Source of the DNA: Nitrospirota bacterium
GTDB lineage: Bacteria > Nitrospirota > Thermodesulfovibrionia > Thermodesulfovibrionales > BMS3Bbin05
DNA length: 17,061 bases
Direction: 5' to 3'
NCBI GenBank assembly: GCA_020351835.1
Contig: CP070669.1
Coordinates: forward strand, 2,107,918-2,124,978
A model generated the notes under the pieces. It made no database searches and was not told the DNA's origin. It was given only the letters and a program-made list of their open reading frames with translations. Made by a program: the position numbers and the translations under genes. Positions 2,842-16,768 of the stretch are shown piece by piece (the stretch's first letter is position 1; every line of letters begins with the position of its first letter).

Positions 2842-3447
2842 TCAGGTCTTCACCACATAACTGTTCAGAGTATCTACCACTTTTTTTGCCTCGGCATCGG
2901 AAGTAGTCGTGAAAACGACCTGATCGCTGTCTGCAAAGCGGGCAACTACGTTATAGAACTCCTTTACCTCTCCAAAGCCCGGGATCACAGTCCCGTGCTG
3001 AAGCGCTATCTTCTCTACCACGGCCACGCCATCAGGGTTTTCGGGCTCTATCCTTATATATTCGACATCGAACTGTCTTAGTTCGCTAAAGTCTTTTCCA
3101 ATGACCCTGCTTCCCAGGTTCCTTTTAAGGGTAAGAGTGACGACACCTGACCCCTTGTCGACCTCGGTAATAAGAACGGGGGCCTTGAATATGAACGTCC
3201 GGGACAACGGGAATATTATCACAAATATGACCGCTGCAACCAGGTAATGTATAAGACCGATCTCTCCAAGAACAGCCATAGAAATGAGATATATAACGAT
3301 AAACACAGCCGACACAAAACTTGAAGCGAGTTCCTTATTGAATATACCGCTATGAAGGACACTGCCCCTGTCCACCTTAAACGATGATGTCTGAAGCATT
3401 ACACTGTCCGCTCCTGTCCTTATCTCATGTCCTCCTTCAAGTCCCAC
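2842..3447 (-). CDS. Hypothetical two-TM membrane protein inserted between carA and carB
   Basis: A 201-codon ORF fills the whole carA-carB gap, 6 nt after the carA stop and 11 nt before the carB start. The start in the track is GTG (complement of 3445-3447), preceded by AAGGA 9 nt upstream. An alternative ATG lies at 3397-3399. Two adjacent hydrophobic helices ([20 protein letters not shown] / [19 protein letters not shown]) are followed by a ~115-aa soluble domain. I recognise no family motif. Confidence 0.6.
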
Positions 3448-3453
3448 CGGGTT

Positions 3454-4578
3454 TTATCCTTTCAAGATCAACTCTTTGAATCTGTTGAATATATGCGAGG
3501 AATCGTGAGGGCCCGGGCCAGCCTCGGGATGATGCTGCACTGAAATGACAGGGAGTTCCACATGCTCCATGCCTTCCTCGGTACCGTCATAAAGGTTCCT
3601 GTGTGTAAGCTTTACTTTATCCCCGAGGCTCTTTATATCAACGCAATAGTTATGGTTCTGGGAAGTTATCTCAACTCTTCCGGTTGCAAGGTCCTTCACG
3701 GGATGGTTCCCGCCATGGTGGCCGAACTTCAATTTATATGTATCTCCGCCCATAGCAAGACCGAGGATCTGGTGTCCCAGGCATATACCGAACACCGGTT
3801 TCTTACCCAGAAGTTTTTTTGCATTTTCTATCCCGTACTTAACAGCTCCGGGATCACCGGGGCCGTTGCTCAAAAAGACCCCGTCGGGATCCATCTCCAG
3901 AACTTTGTCTGCCGGCGTCCTGGCCGGAACGACCTTGATATCGAAACCGGCATCATTCATGTGACGCAATATGTTCAGCTTGACCCCGAAATCATAAACT
4001 ACCACTGTGGGTAAGCGACCCTTGTTGCTCTTGTCTTCCGATCCATGCTCCCACCTCCAGACGCTTTCATGAGGATTATACTCTTTTTTTGACGTTACCA
4101 GCTCGACAAGATCAACCCCGTCTATGCCGGGATGCTGTCTGACCTTATCTAACAGGTACTCGGGCTCTGATCCCGTTGATGAGATAACACCCATCTGGGC
4201 GCCGTTATCCCTGATATGTCTCGTGAGCGCTCTGGTATCTATCCCCTGAATGCCTACTATTCCGTTGTCCTCAAGATATTGTCCGAGCGAACCCCTGGAG
4301 CGCCAGTTGCTCGGATACTCGAGGTACTCCTTTACGATAAATCCCTCGACCTTAGGACCACCTATCGATTCGATGTCCTCCTCGTTAACCCCGTAATTAC
4401 CCATCTGAGTATAGGTCATAGTTACTATCTGCCCCTTATATGAGGGATCGGTAAGGATCTCCTGATAACCAGTCATGGATGTATTGAACACTACCTCTCC
4501 TATGGTCTCTCCGAACGCGCCGAAGGGCTCTCCATCAAATACTGTACCGTCCTTAAGTACCAGACAGGCCTTCTTCAT
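3454..4578 (-). CDS. carA: Carbamoyl-phosphate synthase small (glutamine amidotransferase) subunit
   Basis: 374 aa. The N-terminus LVLKDGTVFDGEPFGA...GEVVFNTSMTGYQEILTDPSYKGQIV is typical CarA. The class-I GATase triad context is present: GICLGHQ (nucleophile Cys) and VQHHPE. A 4-nt ATGA overlap with the upstream pyrC stop (4575-4578). Confidence 0.97.
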   Translation of the reverse strand: MKKACLVLKDGTVFDGEPFGAFGETIGEVVFNTSMTGYQEILTDPSYKGQIVTMTYTQMGNYGVNEEDIESIGGPKVEGFIVKEYLEYPSNWRSRGSLGQYLEDNGIVGIQGIDTRALTRHIRDNGAQMGVISSTGSEPEYLLDKVRQHPGIDGVDLVELVTSKKEYNPHESVWRWEHGSEDKSNKGRLPTVVVYDFGVKLNILRHMNDAGFDIKVVPARTPADKVLEMDPDGVFLSNGPGDPGAVKYGIENAKKLLGKKPVFGICLGHQILGLAMGGDTYKLKFGHHGGNHPVKDLATGRVEITSQNHNYCVDIKSLGDKVKLTHRNLYDGTEEGMEHVELPVISVQHHPEAGPGPHDSSHIFNRFKELILKG

Positions 4579-5870
4579 CTCTCATCCACCATGAGGTCGT
4601 GAACTTTCCCCTTGCATAAGGTCATTACCGGCCTCCCCTTTAATATCATGCCGTTAAAAGGCGTGTTCTTTCCCTTTGATAAGAATCTATCGCAGTCGAC
4701 CTCGAACTCTGCTTCTCTGTCCACGATAACTACATCGGCATCTGATCCCTCGCTCAACGTTCCCTTATTCAATCCAAGGATAGACGCAGGCGACAGAGAC
4801 ATCTTTGATACCAGTCCGTTCATATCCAGTACACCTTGCACAACGAGTCCGAGGCTCATTGACAGGGCCGTCTCGAGACCCGATATCCCTGGGGCGGCCT
4901 TATCGAACTCGCAAAGCTTCTCATCCTGATGATGGGGAGCATGGTCCGTAGCTATAACATCTATTGTTCCATCGGAAAGGCCTCGTTTTATAGCTTCCAC
5001 ATCCCTATCGGTCCGGAGAGGAGGATTGACCTTTGCAAAGGTGTTATATCCCATTGCCAATTCTTCTGTGGTCGTGAAATAGTGAGGACATGTTTCCGCA
5101 GTAACGTTTATTCCATCGCTTTTTGCCCTTCTGACCGCCTCCACCCCCTCTTCTGTTGATATATGCGCAATATGCAGCCTTCCTCCGGTAAGACCGGCAA
5201 GATCGATGTCCCTTTTTATCATGATTATTTCGGCTTCGCGGGGTATTCCCTTTAATCCGAGAAGGTTAGACAACCTTCCCTCGTTCATTACGCCATCCGC
5301 CGACAGCGAACTATCCTCTGCATGAGATATTACCGGCGTGCCGAAGACCTTGGTGTACTCAAGTGCCCTTCTCATGATCATGCTGTTCATTACCGGACGG
5401 CCGTCATCAGAGAAAGCAATACATCCGGCATCGAACATCATCCCCATCTCCGCAAGTTCGGCACCTTCCTGTCCCTTGGTTATTGCTCCTATCGGATACA
5501 CATAACAGGACCCTTCGGCAAAGGCCTTCCTCAGGATGAACTCCGTAACGGTCTCATTATCATTTACCGGTTTTGTATTAGGCATGCAGCATACTGAAGT
5601 AAATCCCCCCCTTACAGCGGCCAGTGTACCGGTCCGTATCGTCTCCTTATACTCGAAGCCGGGCTCCCTAAGATGAACGTGCATGTCAACAAGACCAGGC
5701 ATTACGTAAAGACCTGACGCATCTACTATCCTGATCTCAGGATCGTTGGCCTTTACCTTTATGTTCTTCCCTGTCTTTAATATTGTACGGCCCTCGACAA
5801 GCAGGTCACCTTTGGAATCCAGTCCCTGCGAGGGATCTACGATATGCCCGTTCCTGATAAGAACCTTCAT
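4575..5870 (-). CDS. pyrC: Dihydroorotase (amidohydrolase superfamily)
   Basis: 431 aa. Metal-binding motifs [10 protein letters not shown] and ATDHAPH are present, and the length matches the long-type DHOase of pyr operons. It overlaps pyrB by 4 nt (5867-5870). Confidence 0.94.
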
Positions 5871-6802
5871 TGCTCTTTCTCCTTTGACCTGCCCAGGAGA
5901 TAAATAACGGCCATCCGTACGGCAACACCGTTCGTCACCTGCTCAAGAATGACCGAACGCTCATCATCAGCCACCTCCGATGCGATCTCTATGCCTCTGT
6001 TCATCGGTCCCGGATGCATCACTATAGCCTCAGGATCCGCCATATTCAGTCTTTCACGTGTAAGGCCCCAGAACCTGGAATACTCATCGCTTGACGGGAG
6101 GAACCCTCCTCCCTGTCTTTCCCTCTGTATCCGAAGCATCATTATCACATCAGCTCCCTTTAGCCCTTCATCCATGTCATAATGGATATCGATACCCTCT
6201 TCGTTTATATGAGAAGGCACGAACGTGGGAGGGGCTATAAGTCTGACCTCGGCACCGAGCTCCCTGAGGCAATATATGTTCGATTTGGCAACCCGGCTGT
6301 GAAGGATATCACCTACTATGGCTATCTTTAGCCCTTCGATCTGTGTCTTATGCTCCATGATCGTAAATGCATCGAGGAGGGCCTGGGTCGGATGTTCGTT
6401 TATCCCGTCACCTGCATTAAGTACCGATGCATCAGAGTGCTGAGCTATAAAATGCGGTACGCCGCTTGAGGCATGGCGTATTATTATGTAATCAACTCCA
6501 TATGACTCGATAGTAGCGATAGTATCCAGAAGGCTCTCTCCTTTTACCACGCTGCTTGTAGGGACAGAAAAGTTCACAACATCGGTGCTCAATCTCTTTG
6601 CAGCAAGCTCAAAAGATGTTCTCGTCCTTGTCGAAGGCTCGAAAAAAAGATTGAACACCGTTCGTCCGCGAAGGGCCGGGACCTTCTTAATGTCACGCTT
6701 CAGAACGTCCTTAAAACCCGAGGCCGTTTCAAGAACAAGGGATATCTGCTCTCTGGTCATTCCCCTTATGCCAAGAAGGTCCTTTTGTCCAAGCGAGCTC
6801 AC
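5867..6802 (-). CDS. pyrB: Aspartate carbamoyltransferase catalytic subunit
   Basis: 311 aa with the ATCase signatures [21 protein letters not shown] and HPGPMNRG. It overlaps the pyrR stop by 4 nt (6799-6802). Confidence 0.97.
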
Positions 6803-7347
6803 TCTTCACCCTCTGATCTTTTCAATATTACCTCGTCCTTTCCTGCATCTTCCTTGAACACAACCTCTATCGTTTCGTTCTTTGAGGTCGGGATATTCTT
6901 CCCGGCATAATCAGCCCTTATCGGAAGTTCTCTGTGTCCACGGTCTATCAATACCGCAAGCTGAATTACCGCGGGCCTGCCTATGTCCATCAATGCGTCC
7001 ATAGCCGCTCTTATGGACCTGCCGGTAAAAAACACGTCATCTACAAGGATGACTACCTTTCCGTTAATATCGAAAGGGACATCGGTCCTTCTTATCCTCG
7101 GCTGCTCGTCCCGTATGTCCAGGTCATCCCTGTACATCGCTATGTCAAGAGTGCCGACCTGTACTTTCTGCCCCTCTATCAGATCTATCCTATCGGAGAG
7201 CCTCCTCGCCATATGAACCCCTCCCCTCTGTATACCGATCAGGCAGACATCCACAACCCCCTTATTGTTCTCTATTATCTCGTGCGCTATTCTGGATATA
7301 GCCCGTTCCATGTCGCTCTTGTCCAGCAGTATTTTAGGATCTGTCAT
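6799..7347 (-). CDS. pyrR: Bifunctional pyrimidine operon attenuation regulator / uracil phosphoribosyltransferase PyrR
   Basis: 182 aa, collinear with Bacillus PyrR as I remember it: [12 protein letters not shown], the PRPP-binding loop [21 protein letters not shown], and [26 protein letters not shown]. It is the first gene of the operon. Confidence 0.93.
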
Positions 7348-7380
7348 AGGTCATTCCCCGATCAATAAAGGTCTTTGGAC

Positions 7381-7413
7381 AAAAAAAAACCTTTCCCCGA
7401 TCAGAGGAAAGGT
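7381..7413 (-). terminator. Intrinsic terminator / attenuator hairpin in the pyr leader
   Basis: The minus strand reads A-CCUUUCC-UCUGAUCGG-GGAAAGG-UUUUUUUUU. This is a 7-bp stem (7390-7396 / 7406-7412), a 9-nt loop and a 9-U tract (complement of 7381-7389). It lies 34 nt upstream of the pyrR ATG and downstream of the promoter at 7494-7522, so it sits inside the leader. It would also stop read-through from nadA. Confidence 0.8.
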
Positions 7414-7454
7414 CTCGTTATTATCTTTTTTTCCAACAGTATCTCCTTTACCTT

Positions 7455-7474
7455 ATTAGCCGCGCGGGACTAAT
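7455..7474 (-). promoter_or_regulatory. Candidate PyrR-binding loop (anti-antiterminator hairpin)
   Basis: The minus strand reads AUUAG-UCCCGCGCGG-CUAAU, with a perfect 5-bp AUUAG/CUAAU stem. The core AGUCC-CGCGC-GGCU has the same flanks and length as the remembered PyrR site AGUCC-AGAGA-GGCU, but the central 5 nt differ. It sits between the promoter and the terminator, as in Bacillus-type pyr leaders. Confidence 0.45.
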
Positions 7475-7493
7475 TTAAAAGTAATGCTTGTCT

Positions 7494-7522
7494 ATTAAAG
7501 CATATCCGGAAGAAATTGTCAA
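7494..7522 (-). promoter_or_regulatory. Sigma70-type promoter of the pyr operon
   Basis: On the minus strand: TTGACA (complement of 7517-7522), a 17-nt spacer, then TTTAAT (complement of 7494-7499). It lies between the nadA stop (7559) and the leader hairpins. The predicted transcript start is near 7487, giving a ~140-nt leader. Confidence 0.6.
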
Positions 7523-7558
7523 AAAAGACATACTCCGGTCGAGATACAGTTTTGATGG

Positions 7559-8542
7559 TCAAACGATCGCCAGCATCTTGTCGAGTGCCTCTTTGGCGGG
7601 GACCCTGATATCCTCGGGGACCTTGATAACATTTACCATGTTCTCAAGGGCGTTCACGACACTTTCAAGACGCGTCTTCTTCATGTTAGGACATATCATG
7701 TCCTTTCTCAGCGGGTGGAACATCTTCCCGGGGTTCTCTTTCCCTAGCCTGTACATCAGGCCTACCTCCGTACCCACTATGAACTCTTTAGCATCAGATC
7801 CCCTGGCAAACCTGAGCATCCCTGAAGTGCTCGTTACATGATCGGCGGCCTCACAGACCTCGAGCCGGCATTCCGGATGTGCCATCAGGACCGCATCAGG
7901 ATGGTCAGCTCGCGCTTTCTCAACATCCTTTACAGTGATCCTGTCATGTACATGGCAGAAACCATCCCATGCAATGATCTTCTTGCCGGTGTTCCTGGCC
8001 GCCCACATTGACAGGTTCTTGTCCGGTATGCAAATGATCTCCTCCTGCGGGATGGATTCAATGACCTTAATTACATTTGATGACGTGCAACATATATCAC
8101 TCTCGGCCTTGATGTCCGCTGTTGTATTAACGTAGGTCACTACCGCCGCATCAGGATATTTCTCCTTTATATCCCTCAGGGTAAAATCGTGGGGGAAAAC
8201 GAAAGCCGGCTGCTCAGTATAACCCGGGAAGTTCTTCCATACCTTCCTCTCACCCCTTACTCTGATCATATCTGCCATGGGGCAGTTCGCTTCAAGTTCC
8301 GGAAGCAATACCGTTTTATCGGGAGAAAGGATCGAAGCGCTCTCAGCCATAAAATTGACACCGCAGAACACTATTACATCGCAGTCCACCCCGGCGGCCT
8401 GCCTTGACAGCTCAAGAGAGTCGCCAGTAAAGTCCGCTATGTCCTGAACCTCGTCCCTCTGGTAATTATGCGCAAGTATAACGGCGTTGCGCTTTTTCTT
8501 CAAACTGATGATCCGGTCCTGGAGAACTGCGATATCGGTCAT
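7559..8542 (-). CDS. nadA: Quinolinate synthase
   Basis: 327 aa. NAVILAHNYQRDEVQDIADFTGDSLELSRQA, FCGVNFMAESA, CPMADMI, YVNTTADIKAESDICCTSSNV, PDKNL and MAHPECR are the NadA three-domain repeat signatures, including the Cys ligands of the 4Fe-4S cluster. The start codon directly abuts the stop of the upstream transglycosylase gene (8543). Confidence 0.93.
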   Translation of the reverse strand: MTDIAVLQDRIISLKKKRNAVILAHNYQRDEVQDIADFTGDSLELSRQAAGVDCDVIVFCGVNFMAESASILSPDKTVLLPELEANCPMADMIRVRGERKVWKNFPGYTEQPAFVFPHDFTLRDIKEKYPDAAVVTYVNTTADIKAESDICCTSSNVIKVIESIPQEEIICIPDKNLSMWAARNTGKKIIAWDGFCHVHDRITVKDVEKARADHPDAVLMAHPECRLEVCEAADHVTSTSGMLRFARGSDAKEFIVGTEVGLMYRLGKENPGKMFHPLRKDMICPNMKKTRLESVVNALENMVNVIKVPEDIRVPAKEALDKMLAIV

Positions 8543-9247
8543 CTAAAAGCTTTCATCCGTGAACTCAAGGGGGGTGTCAGTAAAGAGAAGCGTGCCGTCG
8601 CTCAGAACGATCTTGAATATCGGCCTGGATATGGCGTCTTTTTTCATCGGCACATAGCTGAACCTTTCCTCACCGCCGTACAGTGCCAGTATCTTTCTTA
8701 CATATTTGTATGTCTCCGTGTTCTTCGAGAAGTTTACTTTCTTCATCACCCTCGTAGGTCCGGCGTTGTATGCGGCAAGGGACTTTCGAAGGTCCCCCTT
8801 GAACATGTCAAGAAGCATCCTGAAGTATCTTACCCCTCCGGAAATGTTCTCCTCAGGGTCGAACGGATCACTAACAGAAAGGGATTTGGCCGTCATAGGC
8901 ATAAGCTGCATCAACCCCATTGCACCCTTTGAGGAGATCGCCTCGGGATACCAGTTCGATTCAACCGTGATCATGGCCCTTATGAGCTCGGGGTCTACGG
9001 AGTATTCTTCAGCTAATCTTTTGGCAATGGGGAAATATTTACCTACGTTCTTATAGAAATTGCCCTTCACCAAATTAAGGCTGTTTGAAGCGTACTGCTT
9101 GGACCTGGATAAAAGGCTTGCACTACCTTCATAAGGGATATCCGAGTACACTATAACACCTTCAGCATTCTCGTACCTGTAAATATCGGCTGTTACCGGA
9201 CTACATAATGATAACAATACAATTAAAAGAATAGAGCTCCTCAACAT
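8543..9247 (-). CDS. Secreted soluble lytic murein transglycosylase (SLT domain) flanked by DUF4124-like segments
   Basis: 234 aa. Signal peptide MLRSSILLIVLLSLCSPVTA. The SLT catalytic core is ITVESNWYPEAISSKGAMGLMQLMP...AYNAGP. An N-terminal DIYRYENAEGVIVYSDIP and a C-terminal IFKIVLSDGTLLFTDTP both resemble the DUF4124 motif. Confidence 0.85.
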   Translation of the reverse strand: MLRSSILLIVLLSLCSPVTADIYRYENAEGVIVYSDIPYEGSASLLSRSKQYASNSLNLVKGNFYKNVGKYFPIAKRLAEEYSVDPELIRAMITVESNWYPEAISSKGAMGLMQLMPMTAKSLSVSDPFDPEENISGGVRYFRMLLDMFKGDLRKSLAAYNAGPTRVMKKVNFSKNTETYKYVRKILALYGGEERFSYVPMKKDAISRPIFKIVLSDGTLLFTDTPLEFTDESF

Positions 9248-9253
9248 ACTGTG

Positions 9254-9282
9254 ACTATAGCACTATCAGATAAATAAGTCAA
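9254..9282 (-). promoter_or_regulatory. Sigma70-type promoter placed for a leaderless transcript of the transglycosylase gene
   Basis: On the minus strand: TTGACT (complement of 9277-9282), a 17-nt spacer, then TATAGT (complement of 9254-9259). Six nt (CACAGT) follow, then the ATG (complement of 9245-9247). No Shine-Dalgarno sequence is present. Confidence 0.5.
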
Positions 9283-9346
9283 TATTTACAATGTGTTATG
9301 GCACCGATATTAAAGCCGGCCCGCTTAAAGGCAACAAGGGGAACTT

Positions 9347-9634
9347 TTAGTGACCTTTTGAAGCATTTATCCTGATAAGAAACACCAGTTCCCCGGCCGA
9401 TTCCTTCGTATCGATCATCTCATGGCCATACCTTCCGGCAAAGGATATCATATCAGCTTTCGATCCCGGGTCCGATGAAATAATCTTAAGGACCTGACCA
9501 TCTGCCATTTGCCCTATCTCCTTTTTAGCACTGAGTACGGGTATGGGACAGTTGAACCCCTTAACATCTAAAGTTCTGTCAGCCCGGTGTTCTTCCTTTA
9601 GTTCATCTGGTCCATTATCTTTATCAATATCCAT
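9347..9634 (-). CDS. TusA/SirA-family sulfur-carrier protein with ~20-aa acidic N-terminal extension
   Basis: 95 aa. LDVKGFNCPIPVLSAKKEIGQMADGQVLKIISSDPGSKADMISFAGRYGHEMI matches the TusA fold signature, with the CPxP active-site Cys followed by xSDPGS. The RBS AAGGGG lies 7 nt upstream of the ATG. Confidence 0.8.
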   Translation of the reverse strand: MDIDKDNGPDELKEEHRADRTLDVKGFNCPIPVLSAKKEIGQMADGQVLKIISSDPGSKADMISFAGRYGHEMIDTKESAGELVFLIRINASKGH

Positions 9635-9683
9635 TAATTACCCCTTTGTCACAGGATAAATCATAATTCTATTCAGGACCAAA

Positions 9684-9711
9684 TTGCAATTCATCTGCAA
9701 TTGATTATAAT
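9684..9711 (+). promoter_or_regulatory. Candidate sigma70 promoter in the divergent intergenic region
   Basis: TTGCAA (9684-9689), a 16-nt spacer, then TATAAT (9706-9711) on the + strand. The -35 lies inside the 10-bp perfect palindrome AATTGCAATT (9682-9691). ATTATAAT is itself palindromic, so a -10 hexamer also reads on the minus strand toward the TusA-like gene. Confidence 0.4.
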
Positions 9712-9777
9712 TCAGATCAAAACCCATAAATACATTTGTCTTGACAAGCCATTGATCTTTCATGTAAAAGTAATAAC

Positions 9778-10086
9778 ATGAAAAGATATAAATCACTTAT
9801 ACCGCTACTCCTGGTCAGTATATTCACTTTTTTTGTTATCGTGCCGGTCAATATTGCTGAGTCAGGTGATGACTGGAAGGATGAACTGAGAGAAGTATGC
9901 TCAAAGGTCCAGATAGCGGATGAGCTCAGTATCAAGGAGCTTCAGGACCTCATAGCTCAGGCAGATGAGCTGACGATCAAGATAAGCACATCAGGGGACA
10001 GAAGGATGAAGATATTCGTGATGAGACTTCAGAAGTGCAAGTCATTTTTTGAGTTTACGATAGAGACAAAAGAGCCAAAGAAGTGA
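9778..10086 (+). CDS. Small secreted hypothetical protein
   Basis: 102 aa. Signal peptide MKRYKSLIPLLLVSIFTFFVIVPVNIA. The mature part is acidic and helical-looking with two Cys. I recognise no family motif. It is convergent with the RCC1 gene, with stops 14 nt apart. Confidence 0.5.
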   Translation: MKRYKSLIPLLLVSIFTFFVIVPVNIAESGDDWKDELREVCSKVQIADELSIKELQDLIAQADELTIKISTSGDRRMKIFVMRLQKCKSFFEFTIETKEPKK

Positions 10087-10100
10087 ACCTGCCGTGTCTG

Positions 10101-11726
10101 TTACTGGGTGCCTATACCACCGACAACAATTGAAGAGTACTTACCTGCAGATACGTCACTTACGACAGATACATCCCACATTCTGACCGGTGCAGGCTTG
10201 ACAGGCTGGTCATGCAGGTCCTTACCCCATACCCATGTAGTCCCGTCGTTCATAAGTGCCAATGTATGATACATACCGGCCGAAACCTTCTTAATACTTC
10301 CTACCCCCGGTATCTTAAAGGCTACCGAACCGTTTGCGTCCTTTTTCCCGAGCTGACCGAACTCATTGCCTCCCCAGGCCCAGACCGAACCGTCCTTCTT
10401 AAGAGCTACGGTATGATAAAGCCCTGCCGATATCCCTATCATCCCTGACAGGCCTGGAACCTTAATTGGCGATGTCCTCATCTTTCGTGACCTGTCCCCC
10501 AGTATTCCGTTAATGTTCCAGCCCCAGGCCCAGACCGAACCGTCAGAACCCTGCGCTACCGTGTGGTGAAGTCCGGCCGAGGCGTTCTTTATGCCTGTAA
10601 GTCCCTTTACATTCACCGGGGCCTCCCTTGATCTAGTCGAACCGTCACCCAACTGCCCCTGGACATTCCATCCCCAGGTGAACACTGATCCGTCCTGCTT
10701 TACGGCCACATTATGGAACATTCCTGCATCTACAGAAACTATGTTATTCAGGCCTTTCACTTTGACAGGTTCATTACTGTCCCTGGTCGACCCGTTACCA
10801 AGCTGACCGTAAGAGTTACCGCCCCATGCCCACACGGACCCGTCAGCGCTGAGAGCTATTGTATGGTACATGCCTGCAGAAACATCCGTTACCCTCATCA
10901 GGTCCTTCACCAGCACCGGGATCTTACTGTCTATGTTGTCGCCGTTGCCAAGCTGTCCACGGTTGTTGCGCCCCCATGTCCAGGCCGATCCATCTGATTT
11001 GATGGCAACAGAATGGTCTACTCCCGAAGCGACACTGATCACGTCTTCCATTCCGCCGATAGGCAAAAGGCCCTCCCTGCTATTATTGCTCCCATCTCCC
11101 AACTGTCCATATTCGTTAAGGCCGCCTGTCATCACCGCACCGGCGACTGCTTTTTTAGGCATCCAGCTCGAACGGACCGGCCACAGGAACTTGTAACTGC
11201 AGGCTGACATATAGTCTATTGTCATCTCTCCGGATGCGATATCAAGGATCCATACGTAGTCGATTATATCCCTGCCGGTAGACGCCGACCAGTAAAAATG
11301 GTTCTGTACACCGTCAAAGGGATGTCCAACCTGAAGAGCAGGATAGAACTTTGACCTGTCTATAAGGGTCTGAAGCTCGTTTATCGCCGGGAGCCTCCAG
11401 TCCGTATATCCGAAATTAGGTCTTATACCGCTGTTCATCTCCTGGATGTACTGTCTGGCACCAAGCCATGGAAGAGGAAGTTTGTGTATATTGGCGTCCT
11501 TCATCCATATAAGCCCGGTATCCCTGTCGAGTACGGTACCGTCCCCATTGTCCGCGAACCTGTGAGAGGTGCCGGAAGAGACCTTTTGAGTGCTTTTCTT
11601 AGACTGAACCTTGCCGGTCTTCTTCTCTGCAGCTGTAGATTGGATTGCAAATGTAAGCGAAAAGAACACGATGGTGACCATGCAGATAAACCTGATCAAA
11701 GGGATTTTTCTTTCGATATCAATCAT
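10101..11726 (-). CDS. Secreted DUF1566 (Lcl C-terminal-like) + RCC1-repeat beta-propeller protein
   Basis: The ORF in the track extends to 11810. I place the start at the ATG at 11724-11726 (MIDIERKIPLIRFICMVTIVFFSLTFAIQSTAA, a signal peptide), because the upstream 28 codons span a terminator-like hairpin and look non-coding. DUF1566 signatures: FADNGDGTVLDRDTGLIWMKDAN, WRLPAINELQTLI, FYWSAS, LWPVR. These are followed by ~7 RCC1 blades with YGQLGDGS / RGQLGNGD / YGQLGNGS / QGQLGDGS / FGQLG turns. Confidence 0.85.
   Translation of the reverse strand: MIDIERKIPLIRFICMVTIVFFSLTFAIQSTAAEKKTGKVQSKKSTQKVSSGTSHRFADNGDGTVLDRDTGLIWMKDANIHKLPLPWLGARQYIQEMNSGIRPNFGYTDWRLPAINELQTLIDRSKFYPALQVGHPFDGVQNHFYWSASTGRDIIDYVWILDIASGEMTIDYMSACSYKFLWPVRSSWMPKKAVAGAVMTGGLNEYGQLGDGSNNSREGLLPIGGMEDVISVASGVDHSVAIKSDGSAWTWGRNNRGQLGNGDNIDSKIPVLVKDLMRVTDVSAGMYHTIALSADGSVWAWGGNSYGQLGNGSTRDSNEPVKVKGLNNIVSVDAGMFHNVAVKQDGSVFTWGWNVQGQLGDGSTRSREAPVNVKGLTGIKNASAGLHHTVAQGSDGSVWAWGWNINGILGDRSRKMRTSPIKVPGLSGMIGISAGLYHTVALKKDGSVWAWGGNEFGQLGKKDANGSVAFKIPGVGSIKKVSAGMYHTLALMNDGTTWVWGKDLHDQPVKPAPVRMWDVSVVSDVSAGKYSSIVVGGIGTQ
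10372..10544 (-). repeat. In-frame blade repeat inside the RCC1 gene (exact 23-bp copies one blade apart)
   Basis: CCCCAGGCCCAGACCGAACCGTC occurs exactly at 10372-10394 and 10522-10544. The copies are 150 nt (50 codons, one RCC1 blade) apart, and both encode DGSVWAWG. Confidence 0.9.
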
Positions 11727-11755
11727 TTTTATTAGCTCAATACCCTTGTTAACAC

Positions 11756-11786
11756 AAAAACCGGCTTTATTGTAATGAAAGCCGGT
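11756..11786 (-). terminator. Terminator-like hairpin in the 5' leader of the RCC1 gene
   Basis: The minus strand reads ACCGGCUUU-CAUUACAAU-AAAGCCGGU followed by UUUUGUGUU. This is a 9-bp stem (11760-11768 / 11778-11786), a 9-nt loop and a T-run that includes the last stem base. No upstream minus-strand gene exists for it to terminate, because the neighbour is divergent. Confidence 0.45.
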
Positions 11787-11932
11787 CGTCAATATCAAGC
11801 GCTCATACATAAGAGTTCCCTATTAGTTCATAAACAACTTTACAATTAAGTTAACGATATGATAGTCTGATGAGTTTTTACGATCAGTCTTTGATTTTAC
11901 CCATTTAACTACGATCTGAGAGGGAGTTTATT

Positions 11933-13357
11933 ATGACAATCAAATCTAAGTACTCTCCATTAATCGCGATCATCTTCTTTCTGGCCATCGGTGTTAATTT
12001 CGCATTCGCTGCTAATATGAGCGAGGACTTCGCATTTAAGATCTCGTTAGAGAACCACCTGGAGAAGAGGCTGAAACACATAATCACCGAGATCACCGGA
12101 AGCGACAGGGGTGTCATCATAATCAATGCCGATATCGGCACGGTCAAGGGCGGTGATTCCAACAAAGGAAGTATAACAAAGAAAAAGAGCCAGGATGCGC
12201 TAGTATTGCCCGGAGTTCCGGTAAAGAAAGAGTTCGGTACGGGCCTTAAGGAGACTGCTGAGCTTCTCTTCCCCGGAGCGGGCGGCAGTAAATATAAGGT
12301 AAACAAAATGAGCGTCTCCATATGGCTTGATAAAGGGCTTTCACAGTCAATTGTAGACCTTGTAGATAACCTTGCAAAGCAGGTTGTCGGTTACAACGAG
12401 ACGAGAGGGGATAAGGTTGAAATAGTTCCGATCGACTTCAAGGGAGAGAAGTTCTACTGGTCCTCGATATTCTATCCCAAGAACCTTTTCATACTAGCAC
12501 TTGGCCTTGCGGCGGCCCTTTTCTTTCTCGCTGGAGCGTCGTTCCTGTCGGACCCTCTTAAGAACCTTTCAAACGCAATTGCTTCGGTCGACTGGGACCA
12601 GGTAAGGGGCGCAAACGCAGGGATAGAAGCATATAGCCCCAGCTACGAGATGGAAGAACCCGGAATAAGCAGTGATATTACTGGAGCATACGATGCAGGC
12701 GAGCAGCAGCCTTTCTCTTTCATATCCGAGAGAGACCTCTCTAACCTGTCATATCTTCTTAAAGACAGATCGGCTGAGGATATAGCAACGGTAGCTAACT
12801 TCCTCGAGATAGATCTGGCGGCAAAATTGCTCGAATCTTTCGGCACGGATGAACAGGCAGAGGTTGCCCTGCACCTTAGCAATGAGAAGGTCGACCCGGA
12901 CGGGGTAAAGAAGCTCGAGTCCGAGATAAGAGAACAACTAAGCTACGTTGTCGGGGGAGAGAGGAAGTTCATATCGCTCATGAGACTTTCGGATGATGAT
13001 GTCAGGGAAAAGGCTATGGGCATGATGGAGCAGAAGGACAGGGATACCGCATCCCGACTGAAGACCAGGGTAAAGAGCTTCGATGATACAATATCAGATC
13101 TTCCGGCACAGGGCATAAGGGCACTTTACAGAAGGACCAACCCTCTCATCTTCGCGCAGATCGTAAAAGGCTCGTCAGATAAGGTAATAGAGAAGATCCT
13201 GGGATCGCTCAGTGAGGGCGCGGTCGAAAGGCTCAAGCAGGAGATGGAGCTCAGCCAGCCTCTTTCACCCGGACGCCTTCGCAAAGAAAGAATAAACCTC
13301 ATGATGCGCCTTGCAAGCCTTATGGATGAGGGAGCAATAGAAGGAGTGAACAACTGA
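11933..13357 (+). CDS. Membrane-anchored FliF/YscJ-like ring-building-motif domain fused to FliG-like middle and C-terminal domains (putative minimal rotor protein)
   Basis: 474 aa. The RBS AGGGAG lies 6 nt upstream. aa 9-27 is a signal/TM1 segment (PLIAIIFFLAIGVNFAFAA). aa 28-184 is a periplasmic alpha-beta-beta-alpha-beta pattern like the FliF/SctJ RBM: LENHLEKRLKHIITEITGSDRGVIIINADIG ... KMSVSIWLDKGLSQSIVDLVDNLAKQVVGYNETRGDKVEIVPIDF. aa 185-205 is TM2 (LFILALGLAAALFFLAGASFL). aa ~268-316 (LLKDRSAEDIATVANFLEIDLAAKLLESFGTDEQAEVALHLS) parallels the FliG middle domain. VVGG (aa 339-342) parallels the FliG Gly-Gly hinge. aa 383-470 (FDDTISDLPAQGIRALYRRTNPLIFAQIVKGSSDKVIEKILGSLSEGAVERLKQEMELSQPLSPGRLRKERINLMMRLASLMDEGAI) is collinear with the FliG C-terminal domain, remembered as FEDI..LDDRSIQ..LREVD...LALALKGAS.ELKEKIF.NMSKRAA..LKEDME..GPVRL.DVEEAQQKI..IIRRLEE.GEI. 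Confidence 0.75.
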   Translation: MTIKSKYSPLIAIIFFLAIGVNFAFAANMSEDFAFKISLENHLEKRLKHIITEITGSDRGVIIINADIGTVKGGDSNKGSITKKKSQDALVLPGVPVKKEFGTGLKETAELLFPGAGGSKYKVNKMSVSIWLDKGLSQSIVDLVDNLAKQVVGYNETRGDKVEIVPIDFKGEKFYWSSIFYPKNLFILALGLAAALFFLAGASFLSDPLKNLSNAIASVDWDQVRGANAGIEAYSPSYEMEEPGISSDITGAYDAGEQQPFSFISERDLSNLSYLLKDRSAEDIATVANFLEIDLAAKLLESFGTDEQAEVALHLSNEKVDPDGVKKLESEIREQLSYVVGGERKFISLMRLSDDDVREKAMGMMEQKDRDTASRLKTRVKSFDDTISDLPAQGIRALYRRTNPLIFAQIVKGSSDKVIEKILGSLSEGAVERLKQEMELSQPLSPGRLRKERINLMMRLASLMDEGAIEGVNN

Positions 13358-13358
13358 T

Positions 13359-14135
13359 ATGGATTTTATGACTATCATAGGACTGCTCCTCGGCGGCGCA
13401 ACGGTTTATCTCGTAATGCTTCAGGGAAATATTCTTGACATGGTACTTAACCCTGTCGCCGCACTGCTCGTGTTTGGAGGAACTTTCAGCGCTACACTAA
13501 TAGCATATCCGTGGGACCTTATAAAGCAGACCGTTCCATCTTTCAGACTTATGTTCTTCCCTAAGAGGAACACATATGAATATCTTGAGGAGGTCGTTGA
13601 GTCGATGACCTCATTGGCAGAGAAGGCGAGAAGACAGAGCATAGAAAGCCTTCAGGGAGACCTTGGCAAGATAGAGAGCAAGTTCTTTTCGCATGGCATG
13701 CAGATGGTTATAGATGGCCTGGACCCGGCCATAGTCAGGGATAACATGGAAAAAGAGATCCTGTATACCAGACAGAGCTTCCAAAAAGTGTGCGGAGTGT
13801 TCCGTACAATGGCAACACTTTCTCCGATATTCGGGCTTCTCGGTACCCTCATAGGAATAGTCGGGGTCCTCCGCAATCTTGCTGACCCTGCATCTATGGG
13901 AAGCAATATGGCAATCGCTATAACGACCACATTTTATGGTATATTCGCCGCAAACTTTCTTTTTCTGCCGATCTCCATAAAGCTGAACGAACACAGTGAA
14001 CGGGATGTCCTGATCAAGGAACTTATAGCAGAAGGCATTATTGCCATTCACAGCGGTGACCTGCCGCTCATAGTCAGGAAGAAACTCAACGCATTTCTTT
14101 CATCCCACATAAGGGAAAAAAGCGAAAGCAAATAA
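13359..14135 (+). CDS. motA: MotA/PomA-family stator A subunit (4 TM, large TM2-TM3 cytoplasmic loop)
   Basis: 258 aa, collinear with PomA/MotA. TM1 is IIGLLLGGATVYLVML and TM2 is VAALLVFGGTFSATLIAY. A ~95-aa cytoplasmic loop contains SLAEKARRQSIESLQGD and VIDGLDP. TM3 (TLSPIFGLLGTLIGIVGVL) and TM4 (MAIAITTTFYGIFAANFLFLPIS) carry the two conserved Pro residues. The C-terminus is IAEGIIAIHSGDLPLIV. The start is 1 nt after the upstream stop. Confidence 0.92.
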   Translation: MDFMTIIGLLLGGATVYLVMLQGNILDMVLNPVAALLVFGGTFSATLIAYPWDLIKQTVPSFRLMFFPKRNTYEYLEEVVESMTSLAEKARRQSIESLQGDLGKIESKFFSHGMQMVIDGLDPAIVRDNMEKEILYTRQSFQKVCGVFRTMATLSPIFGLLGTLIGIVGVLRNLADPASMGSNMAIAITTTFYGIFAANFLFLPISIKLNEHSERDVLIKELIAEGIIAIHSGDLPLIVRKKLNAFLSSHIREKSESK

Positions 14136-14818
14136 TGCTCCTTAAGCGTATCTATTCCGACCAGCACAGAAAAAGGTCGAGCCCATTGTGGCTCATCATA
14201 TTCTCCGACATGAGCACTAATCTCATGCTCTTCTTCCTTATACTCTTCGCCATGACAAGGATGAGCGATCCCGAGAGGCAATTGATGATAGAGGGAATGG
14301 AGCATGCGGTAAGCGATGAGGTAAGGAAGACCGAGCTTAAAGGAGAAAAGCTCCTGAGGCAGATCAAGGATGAAGATGCCATCAGTAACCTGCGGAACGC
14401 AATAACATACGGCAAACTGGCCGGCCACGCAAAACTGGAAGTTGACGAGAACGAGGTAAAGGTCACACTGAACCTGCCGCGTTTCTTTTCTATCGGAAGT
14501 GCGGAACTGAACGACAATATTACCGATGCACTGTCAAGTCTTGCGGAGCCTCTGAGCCGCTTTCCTAATGACATTGTCATAGAGGGCCATACCGATAACG
14601 TGCCTGTAAGGGGCGGGAGATACCGATCGAACTGGGAGCTGTCCGTAGCTCGCGCGGTGAGCGTTATAGATTTCTTTACCAAAAGGGGATTATTGCCGGA
14701 ACAGCTAATATCAGCAGGGTACGGTGAGTACCACCCTGCATACCCTAACGACACTGAAGATAACAGGTCGCGCAATCGACGGATAGAGATCAACATAATA
14801 AGGAAACAGAGGCTATAG
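14135..14818 (+). CDS. motB: MotB-family stator B subunit with OmpA-like peptidoglycan-binding domain (channel Asp present)
   Basis: 227 aa. TAATG overlap with the motA stop. The N-terminal TM (WLIIFSDMSTNLMLFFLILFAM) carries the conserved Asp, D25, codon 14207-14209. The OmpA-like C-terminus is IVIEGHTDNVP...SNWELSVARAVSV...GYGEYHPAYPNDTEDNRSRNRRIEINI. Confidence 0.9.
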   Translation: MLLKRIYSDQHRKRSSPLWLIIFSDMSTNLMLFFLILFAMTRMSDPERQLMIEGMEHAVSDEVRKTELKGEKLLRQIKDEDAISNLRNAITYGKLAGHAKLEVDENEVKVTLNLPRFFSIGSAELNDNITDALSSLAEPLSRFPNDIVIEGHTDNVPVRGGRYRSNWELSVARAVSVIDFFTKRGLLPEQLISAGYGEYHPAYPNDTEDNRSRNRRIEINIIRKQRL

Positions 14819-14822
14819 CTAT

Positions 14823-15473
14823 ATGCTATCTTTTACTAAACTTATAATAGCTTCAGAAAGGGACCGCGATGACAGCTCGCTCTGGATGCTTCCCTACAGT
14901 ACCCTGATGCTTATACTGCTCATTTTCTTTGCAATCCTGTTTGTTGATTCATATAAGCAGTCAATAGACTATGAGATGGCTATTGCTGAACTTGACGATA
15001 CGAACGAAGGCCTGAAGAAAGAGATAATCCTTGCCAAGAACATGCAGAAGTATATAAACGATAATAATATGAACGATATCGCGGAGATTAAAGTATCGGC
15101 TCGTTTTATAAAACTTGACCTCAAAAGCCCGGCTCTGTTTGAAAGCGGTTTGGCAGACCTTAAACCGGGTATACTGCCTCTGTTCAGAGAGCTAGCGGAT
15201 AACCTGAAGAATGTAGATAACACTGTCGTGGTAGAGGGCCATACCGATAACATCCCTATACATAACAGGTTCTTCGATTCGAACTGGGAGCTTTCATCTG
15301 CCAGGGCATTCAGTGTATTATATTTCCTTATAAATAAAGAGATCGATCCGGAAAGACTTATTGCCCACGGTTTCGGCGAGTTCAGGCCGATCTTTTCGAA
15401 CGATACAGCGGATAACAGGGCTCGTAACAGACGGATCGAGATCACTATCATAAGGAAGGGTAGAGAAGCATGA
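14823..15473 (+). CDS. Second MotB-like/OmpA-like stator B paralog lacking the conserved channel Asp
   Basis: 216 aa, starting 4 nt after the motB stop. The TM LWMLPYSTLMLILLIFFAILF aligns position-for-position with the canonical YADxMTxLLxFF motif, but Thr27 (codon 14901-14903, ACC) sits where the Asp should be. The OmpA-like domain is intact: VVVEGHTDNIP...SNWELSSARAFSV...GFGEFRPIFSNDTADNRARNRRIEITI. Confidence 0.85.
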   Translation: MLSFTKLIIASERDRDDSSLWMLPYSTLMLILLIFFAILFVDSYKQSIDYEMAIAELDDTNEGLKKEIILAKNMQKYINDNNMNDIAEIKVSARFIKLDLKSPALFESGLADLKPGILPLFRELADNLKNVDNTVVVEGHTDNIPIHNRFFDSNWELSSARAFSVLYFLINKEIDPERLIAHGFGEFRPIFSNDTADNRARNRRIEITIIRKGREA

Positions 15474-16768
15474 GGAAGATAGCGGTCATACTTGTGCTCT
15501 TAATGAGCTTTTCATCGTCGGCTGATGCCATTACTGCCCGACAGCTGGAGAAGGTAGAGGAACTCAAGACAGAGGCTTTAGAGCTGCTTCGCAAAAAGGA
15601 GTTCGATAAAGCTGTCCCGGTCCTGAATGAGATACTCGCAATAGACCCTCTTGAAAAGACAGCTAACAGGTACCTTAACCTTGCCAAGCAACAGGCGATG
15701 GAGCCTTTCTGCCAGGAGGCGGCCGAGGCTTTCATGAAAGATGATTATGCCAGCGCTATAGACTCATGGGAAAAGATATTAAGGATGAACCCTGGGGATC
15801 AAAGGTTCTCACGCCTGATAGAGATCACAAAGAACCTCGTCTCTGACAAGACCATCGATGAGATGTATTCGCGTGCGAATGACTTTCTAGAAAAGGGCGA
15901 CAGGAACTCGGCTGCCAATGAGCTCGAGAAGATCCTTTCCATTAAACCTTACGACCGGCGTGCACGAGAAATGCTTGCCAAGGCCAAACAGTCGGTCTCA
16001 AGCGCAAAGACCAAGAAACACTACGATCAGGCTGACCAGTATATGAAGCAGAAGAAATACGACCTGGCCATAGAGGAGTGGAACAAAGTACTCGCGATAG
16101 ATGACAGCCAGCAAGCCGCAAAAAGGCTTATTGCATCGGCCATAAGAGAGAAGATACAGATACAGTACTCCGAGGCTGAGAAACTTTACAGGAAGGGCGA
16201 TTACCTTTCCGCGCGCGACAACTACTACAAGATCCTGGTCGATAATCCGACCGATCTTGATGTAAAGACGATCATATCCAACCTTGACGATACCACAAAG
16301 ATCGTAAACCGGATGGATGAAAGAGGAAAGGCTTACGATATCATGAGGACCTCTCTATCCAACCATATAGCGATAGACGGCAACAAGAAAGCGGCCGTAG
16401 CTGCTGCATGGTACGCAGTACAGATAGACCCCCAGAACACTACGGCACTTGCTATCAAGAACTACATGGAAATGAAGTATGCAACTCTCGTAGCTACAAT
16501 GGAACCCCCTATTGGTTCTATGAACATAATCGACCAGTATCTGTTCGCCGCCCTTAACCACATATATGAGGGGCGCTATGATATGTCGATACAGGAAACT
16601 GGGATAGTGATAGCGCTCGACCCGGACAGCCTTCTCGCATGGAAAAGGCTCGGATCGGCTTACTTTGCGATGGGAGAGAAGAAGAAGGCGCGTAATGCGT
16701 GGCAAAGGGCGCTGAAGATAGACCCCAATGATAAAGAGCTGAAACAGTTCATTAAACAGGCAAAATGA
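15470..16768 (+). CDS. Secreted tetratricopeptide-repeat (TPR) protein
   Basis: 432 aa. ATGA overlap with the upstream stop. Signal peptide MRKIAVILVLLMSFSSSADA. Repeated TPR signatures include EFDKAVPVLNEILAIDP, DYASAIDSWEKILRMNP, DRNSAANELEKILSIKP, KYDLAIEEWNKVLAID, DYLSARDNYYKILVDNP, and LGSAYFAMGEKKKARNAWQRALKIDPND. Confidence 0.85.
   Translation: MRKIAVILVLLMSFSSSADAITARQLEKVEELKTEALELLRKKEFDKAVPVLNEILAIDPLEKTANRYLNLAKQQAMEPFCQEAAEAFMKDDYASAIDSWEKILRMNPGDQRFSRLIEITKNLVSDKTIDEMYSRANDFLEKGDRNSAANELEKILSIKPYDRRAREMLAKAKQSVSSAKTKKHYDQADQYMKQKKYDLAIEEWNKVLAIDDSQQAAKRLIASAIREKIQIQYSEAEKLYRKGDYLSARDNYYKILVDNPTDLDVKTIISNLDDTTKIVNRMDERGKAYDIMRTSLSNHIAIDGNKKAAVAAAWYAVQIDPQNTTALAIKNYMEMKYATLVATMEPPIGSMNIIDQYLFAALNHIYEGRYDMSIQETGIVIALDPDSLLAWKRLGSAYFAMGEKKKARNAWQRALKIDPNDKELKQFIKQAK

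Follow-up and report, generated by a model that had tools for sequence, protein, structure and literature searches.

The closest described relatives of the locus reported here are the flagellar stators MotA5MotB2 and PomA5PomB2 (PDB 6YKM, 6YSF, 6YSL, 8BRI, 8UCS). Like ExbB5ExbD2-TonB, TolQ5TolR2-TolA and the Zorya complex ZorA5ZorB2, they are ion-driven 5:2 motors with a B-type helix that carries a conserved aspartate. The presence of this aspartate is documented for MotB, TolR, AglQ/AglS and ExbD. In the solved stators the two B chains take up non-equivalent positions within the A pentamer, and current models of the 5:2 motors (MotAB, ExbBD, TolQR, Zorya) start from two aspartates which are equivalent in ion binding and alternate. 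We analyzed a stretch of 17,061 nucleotides from a Nitrospirota bacterium (assembly GCA_020351835.1, contig CP070669.1, positions 2,107,918 to 2,124,978 of the forward strand), called the window in the following. It carries a cassette of five genes which code for a fusion of FliF and FliG parts, a MotA, two MotB paralogs (MotB-1 and MotB-2) and a TPR protein. Only MotB-1 has the channel aspartate; MotB-2 has a threonine in its place. To our knowledge, the channel aspartate is present in every B subunit characterized so far.

The gliding motor AglR-AglQ-AglS of Myxococcus xanthus likewise consists of one MotA-like subunit and two MotB-like paralogs. AglQ and AglS are TolR-like proteins without OmpA-like domains, and we know of no FliG-like partner for them. 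Unlike MotB-2, both are described with the conserved aspartate; the question of homo- or heterodimers is open for AglQ and AglS as well (PMC9389320). A neutral residue instead of the carboxylate, as in MotB-2, is found in the mutants D22N of Campylobacter jejuni MotB, described as a protonation mimic (PDB 6YKR), and D32N of Escherichia coli MotB, and asparagine itself occurs in many MotB-2 orthologues. These mutants, however, were made in the laboratory, have both B chains altered and are non-functional, whereas the change in MotB-2 is natural, concerns one paralog and is selectively maintained. We found no paper on the cassette or on a MotB paralog lacking the aspartate, and nothing directly relevant on experiments with single-aspartate heterodimers or on ExbD1/ExbD2 precedents. 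As far as we found in the literature, the pair of an aspartate-bearing and a neutral MotB and the two-phylum cassette family to which it belongs are thus unreported.

All cassette genes lie on the + strand. The gene for the MotA/PomA-type A subunit (13359..14135, 258 amino acids (aa)) is followed by those for MotB-1 (14135..14818, 227 aa; assigned from the open reading frame (ORF), Pfam and BLASTP) and MotB-2 (14823..15473, 216 aa; assigned from alignments, structure prediction and Foldseek). The transmembrane (TM) helix of MotB-1 has the sequence ...PLWLIIFSD25MSTNLMLFF... with the channel residue Asp25 encoded by GAC at 14207-14209. The helix of MotB-2 reads ...SLWMLPYST27LMLILLIFF... and places Thr27 (ACC, 14901-14903) at the same position. 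Three methods give one register. BLASTP, which aligns the two proteins over their full length (37% identity, E = 6e-45), pairs FSD with YST. Searched with phmmer against the solved MotB chains of Clostridium sporogenes and Bacillus subtilis, the MotB-2 segment slwmlpYSTlml comes to lie on deWLATFSDTIT (6ysf) and esWLVPYADILT (6ysl), respectively. A comparison by hhalign of a profile of 39 MotB-2 family sequences with one of 28 canonical MotBs puts Thr27 on the invariant aspartate, with a gap-free TM alignment and a probability of 100%. The first-pass annotation of the window, which was made from the letters alone, had proposed exactly this tandem of MotB paralogs with Asp25 and Thr27, and the ORFs, both codons and the sequence, profile-profile and PDB-based alignments bear it out. 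It had also considered that a profile alignment could shift the register and bring another acidic residue, Asp41, to the channel position; the register is unshifted and Asp41 lies elsewhere.

The annotation was also right in describing the two motB genes as adjacent and coupled. Between motB-1 and motB-2 there are 4 nt, the motA stop and the motB-1 start overlap (TAATG), and so do the motB-2 stop and the start of the TPR gene (ATGA). With the junction TGAtATG between the fusion gene and motA, the five genes are densely packed from 11933 to 16768. A promoter and terminator scan gave no convincing terminator inside the operon and only weak promoter-like matches. In GenBank the five proteins are UCG78113-UCG78117 of a Nitrospirota metagenome-assembled genome (MAG), and are labelled, in the order of the cassette, as hypothetical protein, MotA/TolQ/ExbB family, MotB, OmpA family protein and TPR protein.

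MotB-1 has everything by which a MotB or PomB is recognized, namely the TM helix with the aspartate, a plug region (38.6 bits on Pfam MotB_plug against a cut-off of 24 bits), an OmpA-like domain (Pfam OmpA 1-98/98, 63.8 bits) and a gene that follows motA. MotB-2 shares the TM helix and the OmpA-like domain and lacks the ion-binding aspartate. That it keeps an intact OmpA-like domain had been claimed before and holds: the Pfam OmpA match runs from end to end (1-98/98, E = 9e-19), and the best Foldseek matches of the periplasmic domain are MotS, PomB and MotB with target-normalised TM-scores of 0.8-0.86. Its likeness to the solved flagellar B subunits thus extends to the periplasmic fold. The AlphaFold2 (AF2) model of MotB-2 (mean predicted local distance difference test score, pLDDT, of 82) has a TM helix at 22-44 and a short plug-like helix at 48-57, and the latter (SVEYExA) is conserved in the family alignment. 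Invariant in this alignment are the residues T141, D142, N154 and R161 of the peptidoglycan-binding motifs as well as W21, M22 and P24 in front of the channel position. The helix signature W-x-x-P-Y-x-[T/N/D]-L-M-x-x-L-x-I-F-F is kept.

To see how widely the threonine is shared we compared the nearest relatives of MotB-2 in the databases whose N-terminus is intact, 116 homologues which range from 100% to about 47% identity. At the channel position 112 of them have threonine, three alanine and one asparagine; aspartate does not occur. No aspartate or glutamate at all is present within the 24-residue TM window of 111 of the 116. Relatives of MotB-2 preserve the protein over its entire length, at identities between 100% and about 45%. 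When 1.84 billion cluster representatives were searched with a profile, the threonine type made up one or two clusters at 50% identity. Adjoining it is a broad group of sequences similar to MotB-2 (W-x-x-P-Y-[AG]-x-L-M-T) with asparagine (14 representatives) or aspartate, and the MotB-1-like representatives (I-W-L-T-I-Y-S-D-x-x-T-N-L-M-L-F-F) have aspartate in all cases. Across the cassettes described below, the mean pairwise identity of MotB-2 is 0.65 in the TM helix, 0.47 in the linker and 0.65 in the OmpA domain, and that of MotB-1 is 0.80, 0.44 and 0.65, values which are only indicative as the sample is skewed to one clade. The MotB-2 helix is thus as conserved as the OmpA domain and more than the linker, as would be expected for a helix which is packed within a protein pore; so strong a constraint would be unexpected in a helix which serves only as a lipid anchor. 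The searches also returned two proteins of 432-473 aa (P0121, P0137) in which an OmpA-like domain precedes a MotB-like TM helix with aspartate and a second OmpA-like domain. We considered them as fusions of two B subunits and dismissed this, as they represent a double-anchor MotB architecture of another type.

The cassette of FliF-FliG fusion, MotA, MotB-1, MotB-2 and TPR protein is conserved in Nitrospirota and Elusimicrobiota. On long Nitrospirota contigs of three relatives the gene order is a 474-488-aa protein, MotA, MotB-1, MotB-2 and a 432-aa TPR protein. A genome scan with the MotB-2 profile, which drew on generic OmpA motifs and missed close Nitrospirota relatives, found the cassette in Elusimicrobiota MAGs that include, among the matches listed, Ca. 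Obscuribacterium magneticum. Far more specific was the profile of the fusion protein, with which a metagenome scan yielded 51 loci. We tabulated 39 cassettes with two B genes (L004, L005 and L096 are one contig). Each cassette has one MotA and two B genes, and the B genes stand together in 39/39. The fusion protein adjoins MotA-MotB1-MotB2 in every complete cassette, and in those complete cassettes that we examined the TPR protein directly follows or precedes the stator genes. Translational coupling of the B genes is frequent, with overlaps of 1-4 nt in L002, L007, L087, L090-L092, L095 and L128.

MotB-1 has the aspartate in all 34 cassettes which could be read automatically and in one more that was recovered by hand from a miscalled ORF start; in the other 4/39 loci it was unread owing to frameshifts or ORF miscalls. 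The 36 aspartate codons recorded are all GAT or GAC. In MotB-2 the same position is occupied by asparagine in 21 cassettes, by threonine in 15 and by aspartate in three (L007, L010 and L120; aspartate is also found in L011, a locus that is cut before the fusion gene). In its general form the asymmetry therefore consists of an aspartate in B1 and, for most lineages, a neutral residue in B2, and since MotB-1 always has the aspartate where it is readable whereas MotB-2 mostly has asparagine or threonine, the loss of the aspartate is recurrent and confined to one paralog. The supposition of the annotation that orthologous operons keep the asymmetry thus holds, but not strictly as a pair of aspartate and threonine. 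MotB-2 proteins of the Elusimicrobiota-type group that share 91% identity can differ in having AAT (Asn) or ACT (Thr) at the channel position (L114 versus L110 and L102), where the two residues hence look equivalent. Nitrospirota encode the threonine by ACC and the Elusimicrobiota-type group by ACT, and threonine thus arose at least twice in MotB-2. All Nitrospirota copies examined (the window, L002, L004, L087, L090-L092, L095, L128) have ACC, with proteins down to about 48% identity; there is no synonymous variation at this codon, and it therefore tells nothing about selection. The tree of about 140 B subunits that we built by neighbour joining was used only qualitatively, its resolution being too poor for dating the duplication or for an exact count of the losses of the aspartate.

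The MotA of the cassette has an intact channel. The alignment with the solved MotA and PomA covers the entire protein (E = 1.5e-48), Thr163 and Thr191 correspond to T164 and T192 of the C. sporogenes proton path, and both conserved TM prolines are present. These features it shares with the flagellar A subunits. Between the MotA channel residues and the state of MotB-2 (Asp, Asn or Thr) in the cassettes we saw no link.

Upstream of motA lies the gene of a 474-aa protein (11933..13357) which was assigned from Pfam, AF2 and Foldseek as a putative rotor ring subunit. Pfam recognizes the domains YscJ_FliF_C, FliG_M and FliG_C. In the AF2 model (pLDDT 74.6) an N-terminal signal or TM helix is followed by a periplasmic ring-building motif (RBM) of alpha-beta-beta-alpha-beta type. 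This motif is split by a collar-like insertion at 72-118, modelled with low confidence yet highly conserved, with an invariant L-P-G-x-P...G. A second TM helix (185-206) leads to the FliG middle and C-terminal (MC) domains at 266-466 with their Gly-Gly hinge. Foldseek matches the model to FliG MC (E = 4e-9) and, separately, to the RBM3/collar region of the FliF MS-ring (E about 2e-3, probability 1.0). On the strength of the domains, the layout of the model and these matches, the protein is a natural FliF(RBM3)-FliG(MC) fusion without RBM1/2 or FliG_N. FliF and FliG have been fused by engineering before (PDB 8Z4D), and the cassette protein shares with the MS-ring and FliG the RBM3/collar-like domain, a TM helix, FliG MC and the Gly-Gly hinge. 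It differs in being one continuous natural chain of about 475-590 aa which lacks RBM1, RBM2 and FliG_N, its torque-helix charges are altered, and genes for an export gate, a rod, FliM or FliN are absent from its surroundings. We infer that the fusion protein would form a ring which rotates. In flagella the stator acts on FliG mounted on a full basal body; here its putative partner on the rotor side is the FliF-FliG fusion, which is anchored in the membrane.

The charged residues between rotor and stator were compared next to each other, at MotA residues 91-99 (about 13629-13655) and fusion residues 429-437 (about 13217-13243). MotA retains the equivalent of Arg90 as Arg91. The equivalent of Glu98 is Gln99 in the window and Gln, Ala or Ser in most cassettes (Glu in L010), as against Glu in 4/5 flagellar control MotAs. 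In the fusion protein the equivalent of FliG Arg281 is an invariant glycine, Asp288 is replaced by Gln and Asp289 by Glu (E. coli numbering). One charge pair seems thus to be lost on both sides and the other kept, and this fits MotA and the fusion protein as partners. MotA also has a new conserved residue, Glu96.

The cassette differs from the flagellar systems in further respects, above all in having two B genes per MotA, one of them without the aspartate. Its proteins remain far below the cut-offs of the flagellar NCBIfam equivalogs (MotA/PomA/MotP and MotB/MotD/MotS for the stator): MotA reaches 183.7 versus 340, MotB-1 142.3 versus 283 and MotB-2 149.3 versus 283. The fusion protein, when treated as a FliG, has FliG_M and FliG_C only (TIGR00207, 48.5 versus 226.7) and, when treated as a FliF, a single RBM-like motif with an insertion (TIGR00206, 22.5 versus 129.75). 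Neither the window nor the flanks of the related loci contain other flagellar genes. The cassette looks like a self-contained minimal rotor-stator module outside flagellar gene clusters. Homologues of motAB and fliG without flagellar structural genes have been noted in a preprint on magnetotactic Elusimicrobiota, which calls their role unclear, and a survey of flagellar loss reports rotor proteins in 11% of non-motile species. To the Exb, Tol and Zorya motors the similarity is much lower than to the flagellar type. On TolQ the cassette MotA scores 22 versus 221 bits, far below the cut-off, and genes similar to TonB, TolA or ZorCD are absent. ZorB profiles match both MotBs weakly and MotA has no ZorA match. 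Zorya or another known defence system is ruled out, as PADLOC gives no match for MotA or the proteins around it and the generic ZorB similarity amounts to <=78 bits.

We suggest, with somewhat less than even confidence, that MotB-2 is a real and selectively maintained second B subunit without a carboxylate, which together with MotB-1 and MotA forms a unit MotA5-MotB1-MotB2 with one ion site that uses one ion per 72 degrees. This suggestion builds on the facts that MotB-1 never loses the aspartate, that MotB-2 is mostly neutral but constrained, that there is a single motA and that the B genes occur together; the intact MotA channel speaks for it as well, and so do the non-equivalent B chains of the solved stators and the description of D22N as a protonation mimic. 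Such a motor could work as follows. One MotB-1 helix and one MotB-2 helix would form the axle within a single MotA pentamer, and both B subunits would be tethered to the peptidoglycan through their OmpA-like domains. Only Asp25 of MotB-1 would bind and release ions. The neutral threonine or asparagine of MotB-2 would act like a permanently protonated aspartate and pass each MotA interface without being protonated. The ring of MotA subunits, while it pushes against the FliG-like domain of the fusion, would thereby take up one ion in every 72 degrees instead of one in every 36 degrees.

Several points weigh against this proposal. That MotB-2 sits inside MotA, that it shares one pentamer with MotB-1 and how many ions are used is what we infer, and in canonical motors neutralisation of the aspartate abolishes function. 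MotB D32N of E. coli is in addition dominant-negative, and we know of no single-aspartate stator that has been shown to work. On MotB_plug, MotB-2 reaches 21 bits and stays under the cut-off. The coupling of the B genes is not universal, as spacers of about 60-150 nt separate them in the Elusimicrobiota-type loci. The conservation statistics take in many sequences from metagenomes which are closely related to each other. Finally, the aspartate of MotB-2 in three to four cassettes could mean that the ancestor had two independent homodimeric stators. Judged from comparative sequence data, the evolutionary pattern favours a structurally constrained B subunit without a carboxylate, and does not separate a heterodimer from separate homodimers.

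We therefore have to consider that there might be two kinds of stator, a conducting MotA5(MotB-1)2 and a non-conducting MotA5(MotB-2)2 which docks on the FliG-like ring and on the peptidoglycan and serves as brake, bearing, scaffold or competitor. MotB-2 has retained the TM helix, the plug-like helix and the peptidoglycan-binding domain, asparagine at the channel site mimics the protonated and locked state, and the aspartate in L007, L011 and L120 agrees with a descent of MotB-2 from a stator subunit that functioned independently, even though the retention of the aspartate in a few lineages is compatible with the heterodimer and with two stators alike. A constitutive brake which is made together with the active subunit from overlapping genes seems wasteful, however. 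The constant company of the two B genes also speaks against separate stators, no regulation of motB-2 of its own is visible given the lack of an internal terminator and of more than weak promoter-like matches, and the free exchange of asparagine and threonine suggests that the site need only be neutral and is not tuned for locking. We regard two kinds of stator as unlikely, if by no means far-fetched. Clearly less probable still is a MotB-2 outside of MotA, that is, a membrane-anchored peptidoglycan-binding scaffold derived from MotB, for example for the TPR protein or for the fusion ring. Such a role would go with the lack of the defining aspartate, the low plug score, the overlap of motB-2 with the TPR gene and the NCBI label, which is merely that of an OmpA family protein, but it leaves the kept MotB helix signature, as conserved as the OmpA domain, and the gap-free profile alignment through the helix to canonical MotB without a ready explanation.

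The two remaining explanations are largely excluded. The cassette could be an ordinary stator operon of a flagellum that is encoded elsewhere in the genome, and the additional MotB paralog could reflect a redundancy like that of MotAB/MotCD or MotAB/MotPS. The MotA is indeed nearest to flagellar MotA, PomA and MotP, and ordinary MotAB pairs exist on some Nitrospirota contigs (L019, L056). Yet the cassette brings its own FliF-FliG fusion without FliG_N and RBM1/2, no other flagellar gene lies nearby, the equivalog scores are far too low, the rotor-stator charge pair is unlike that of the flagellar controls, and in Elusimicrobiota homologous motAB and fliG are reported without flagellar structural genes, all of which makes a flagellar function very unlikely. 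We attach hardly any weight to an artefact, either a wrong register which hides another acidic residue or a decaying, pseudogene-like MotB-2. The only candidate residue is Asp41 in FVDS near the periplasmic end of the helix. It is particular to the MotB-2 of the window and not conserved, the helix is free of acidic residues in nearly all homologues, and with three alignment methods in agreement a register shift is ruled out. A lesion, which the annotation had thought possible for this strain, is ruled out in the same way by the threonine found across the lineage, by the conservation of the full-length protein and by the invariant peptidoglycan-binding motifs.

The annotation had discussed the two MotBs by themselves and had suggested a heterodimeric B core with only one ion site, a non-conducting anchoring or regulatory subunit, or a competitor as possible roles; its factual core stands, but it missed the context of the cassette with the fusion and TPR proteins and the position of the genes outside a flagellar locus. 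Considering the cassette as a whole, we can imagine a flagellum-independent rotary machine, undescribed so far, in which stators with a MotB-1/MotB-2 axle turn a ring of fusion proteins as a natural 5:1:1 motor with one ion per 72 degrees, and in which the TPR proteins, in some lineages together with outer-membrane or surface proteins, make the link to an envelope function. This wider picture is a possibility which we put forward with considerable reserve. If a heterodimer of MotB-1 and MotB-2 is realized, nature would provide a stator with one permanently neutral axle helix, which tests whether both sites are needed, and a single-site stator would also test the ratio of ions per step and the use of a built-in asymmetry of the B chains. 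The cassette further bears on the roles of rotor and stator proteins outside flagella and on the minimal size of a rotor-stator module.

The last gene of the cassette codes for a TPR-repeat protein of 432 aa (15470..16768, +) which was recognized by Pfam TPR families and is taken as periplasmic, its N-terminus being signal-peptide-like by eye. On the other side, and transcribed divergently from the cassette, lies the gene for an RCC1-repeat beta-propeller protein with an Lcl_C domain (10101..11810, -; Pfam). Such a neighbour is also present in the Nitrospirota loci L001, L002, L004, L089-L092 and L094 but not in the Elusimicrobiota-type loci. In L004 (12230-16950) the cassette is adjoined by type II secretion/type IV pilus-like genes (T2SSF, N_methyl pseudopilins) and multihaem cytochromes. 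Multihaem cytochrome/OmpA genes together with a sigma54 two-component pair are situated close to the cassette in L001 and L002. In L001 the cassette itself (7033-10624) is split into fragments by apparent frameshifts. The contig is a long-read contig of 2.35 Mb, and the frameshifts are probably assembly errors rather than signs of pseudogenes. The flanks of the Elusimicrobiota-type loci (L104 757-5736 and 10325-13206; L113 11891-13348) contain an fn3/CHU_C surface protein which resembles proteins sorted by the type IX secretion system (T9SS), a dCache histidine kinase, an 842-aa protein with TPRs and weak matches to the outer-membrane barrel TraF_2, and multi-REC and REC-GGDEF regulators. These neighbours hint at an envelope-spanning function of the cassette which is linked to cyclic di-GMP (c-di-GMP).

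Apart from the RCC1/Lcl_C gene, the remaining genes of the window are unrelated housekeeping genes, among them nadA, tusA and a gene for a lytic transglycosylase. The genes pyrR (6799-7347), pyrB (5867-6802), pyrC (4575-5870) and carA (3454-4578) have overlapping coding regions, and upstream of pyrR a PyrR-binding leader is found by Rfam at 7382-7485 (-) with 54.7 bits, just above the gathering score of 54. Five ORFs of 89-201 aa without a Pfam match are located at 437-2708 (+) and 2842-3447 (-).

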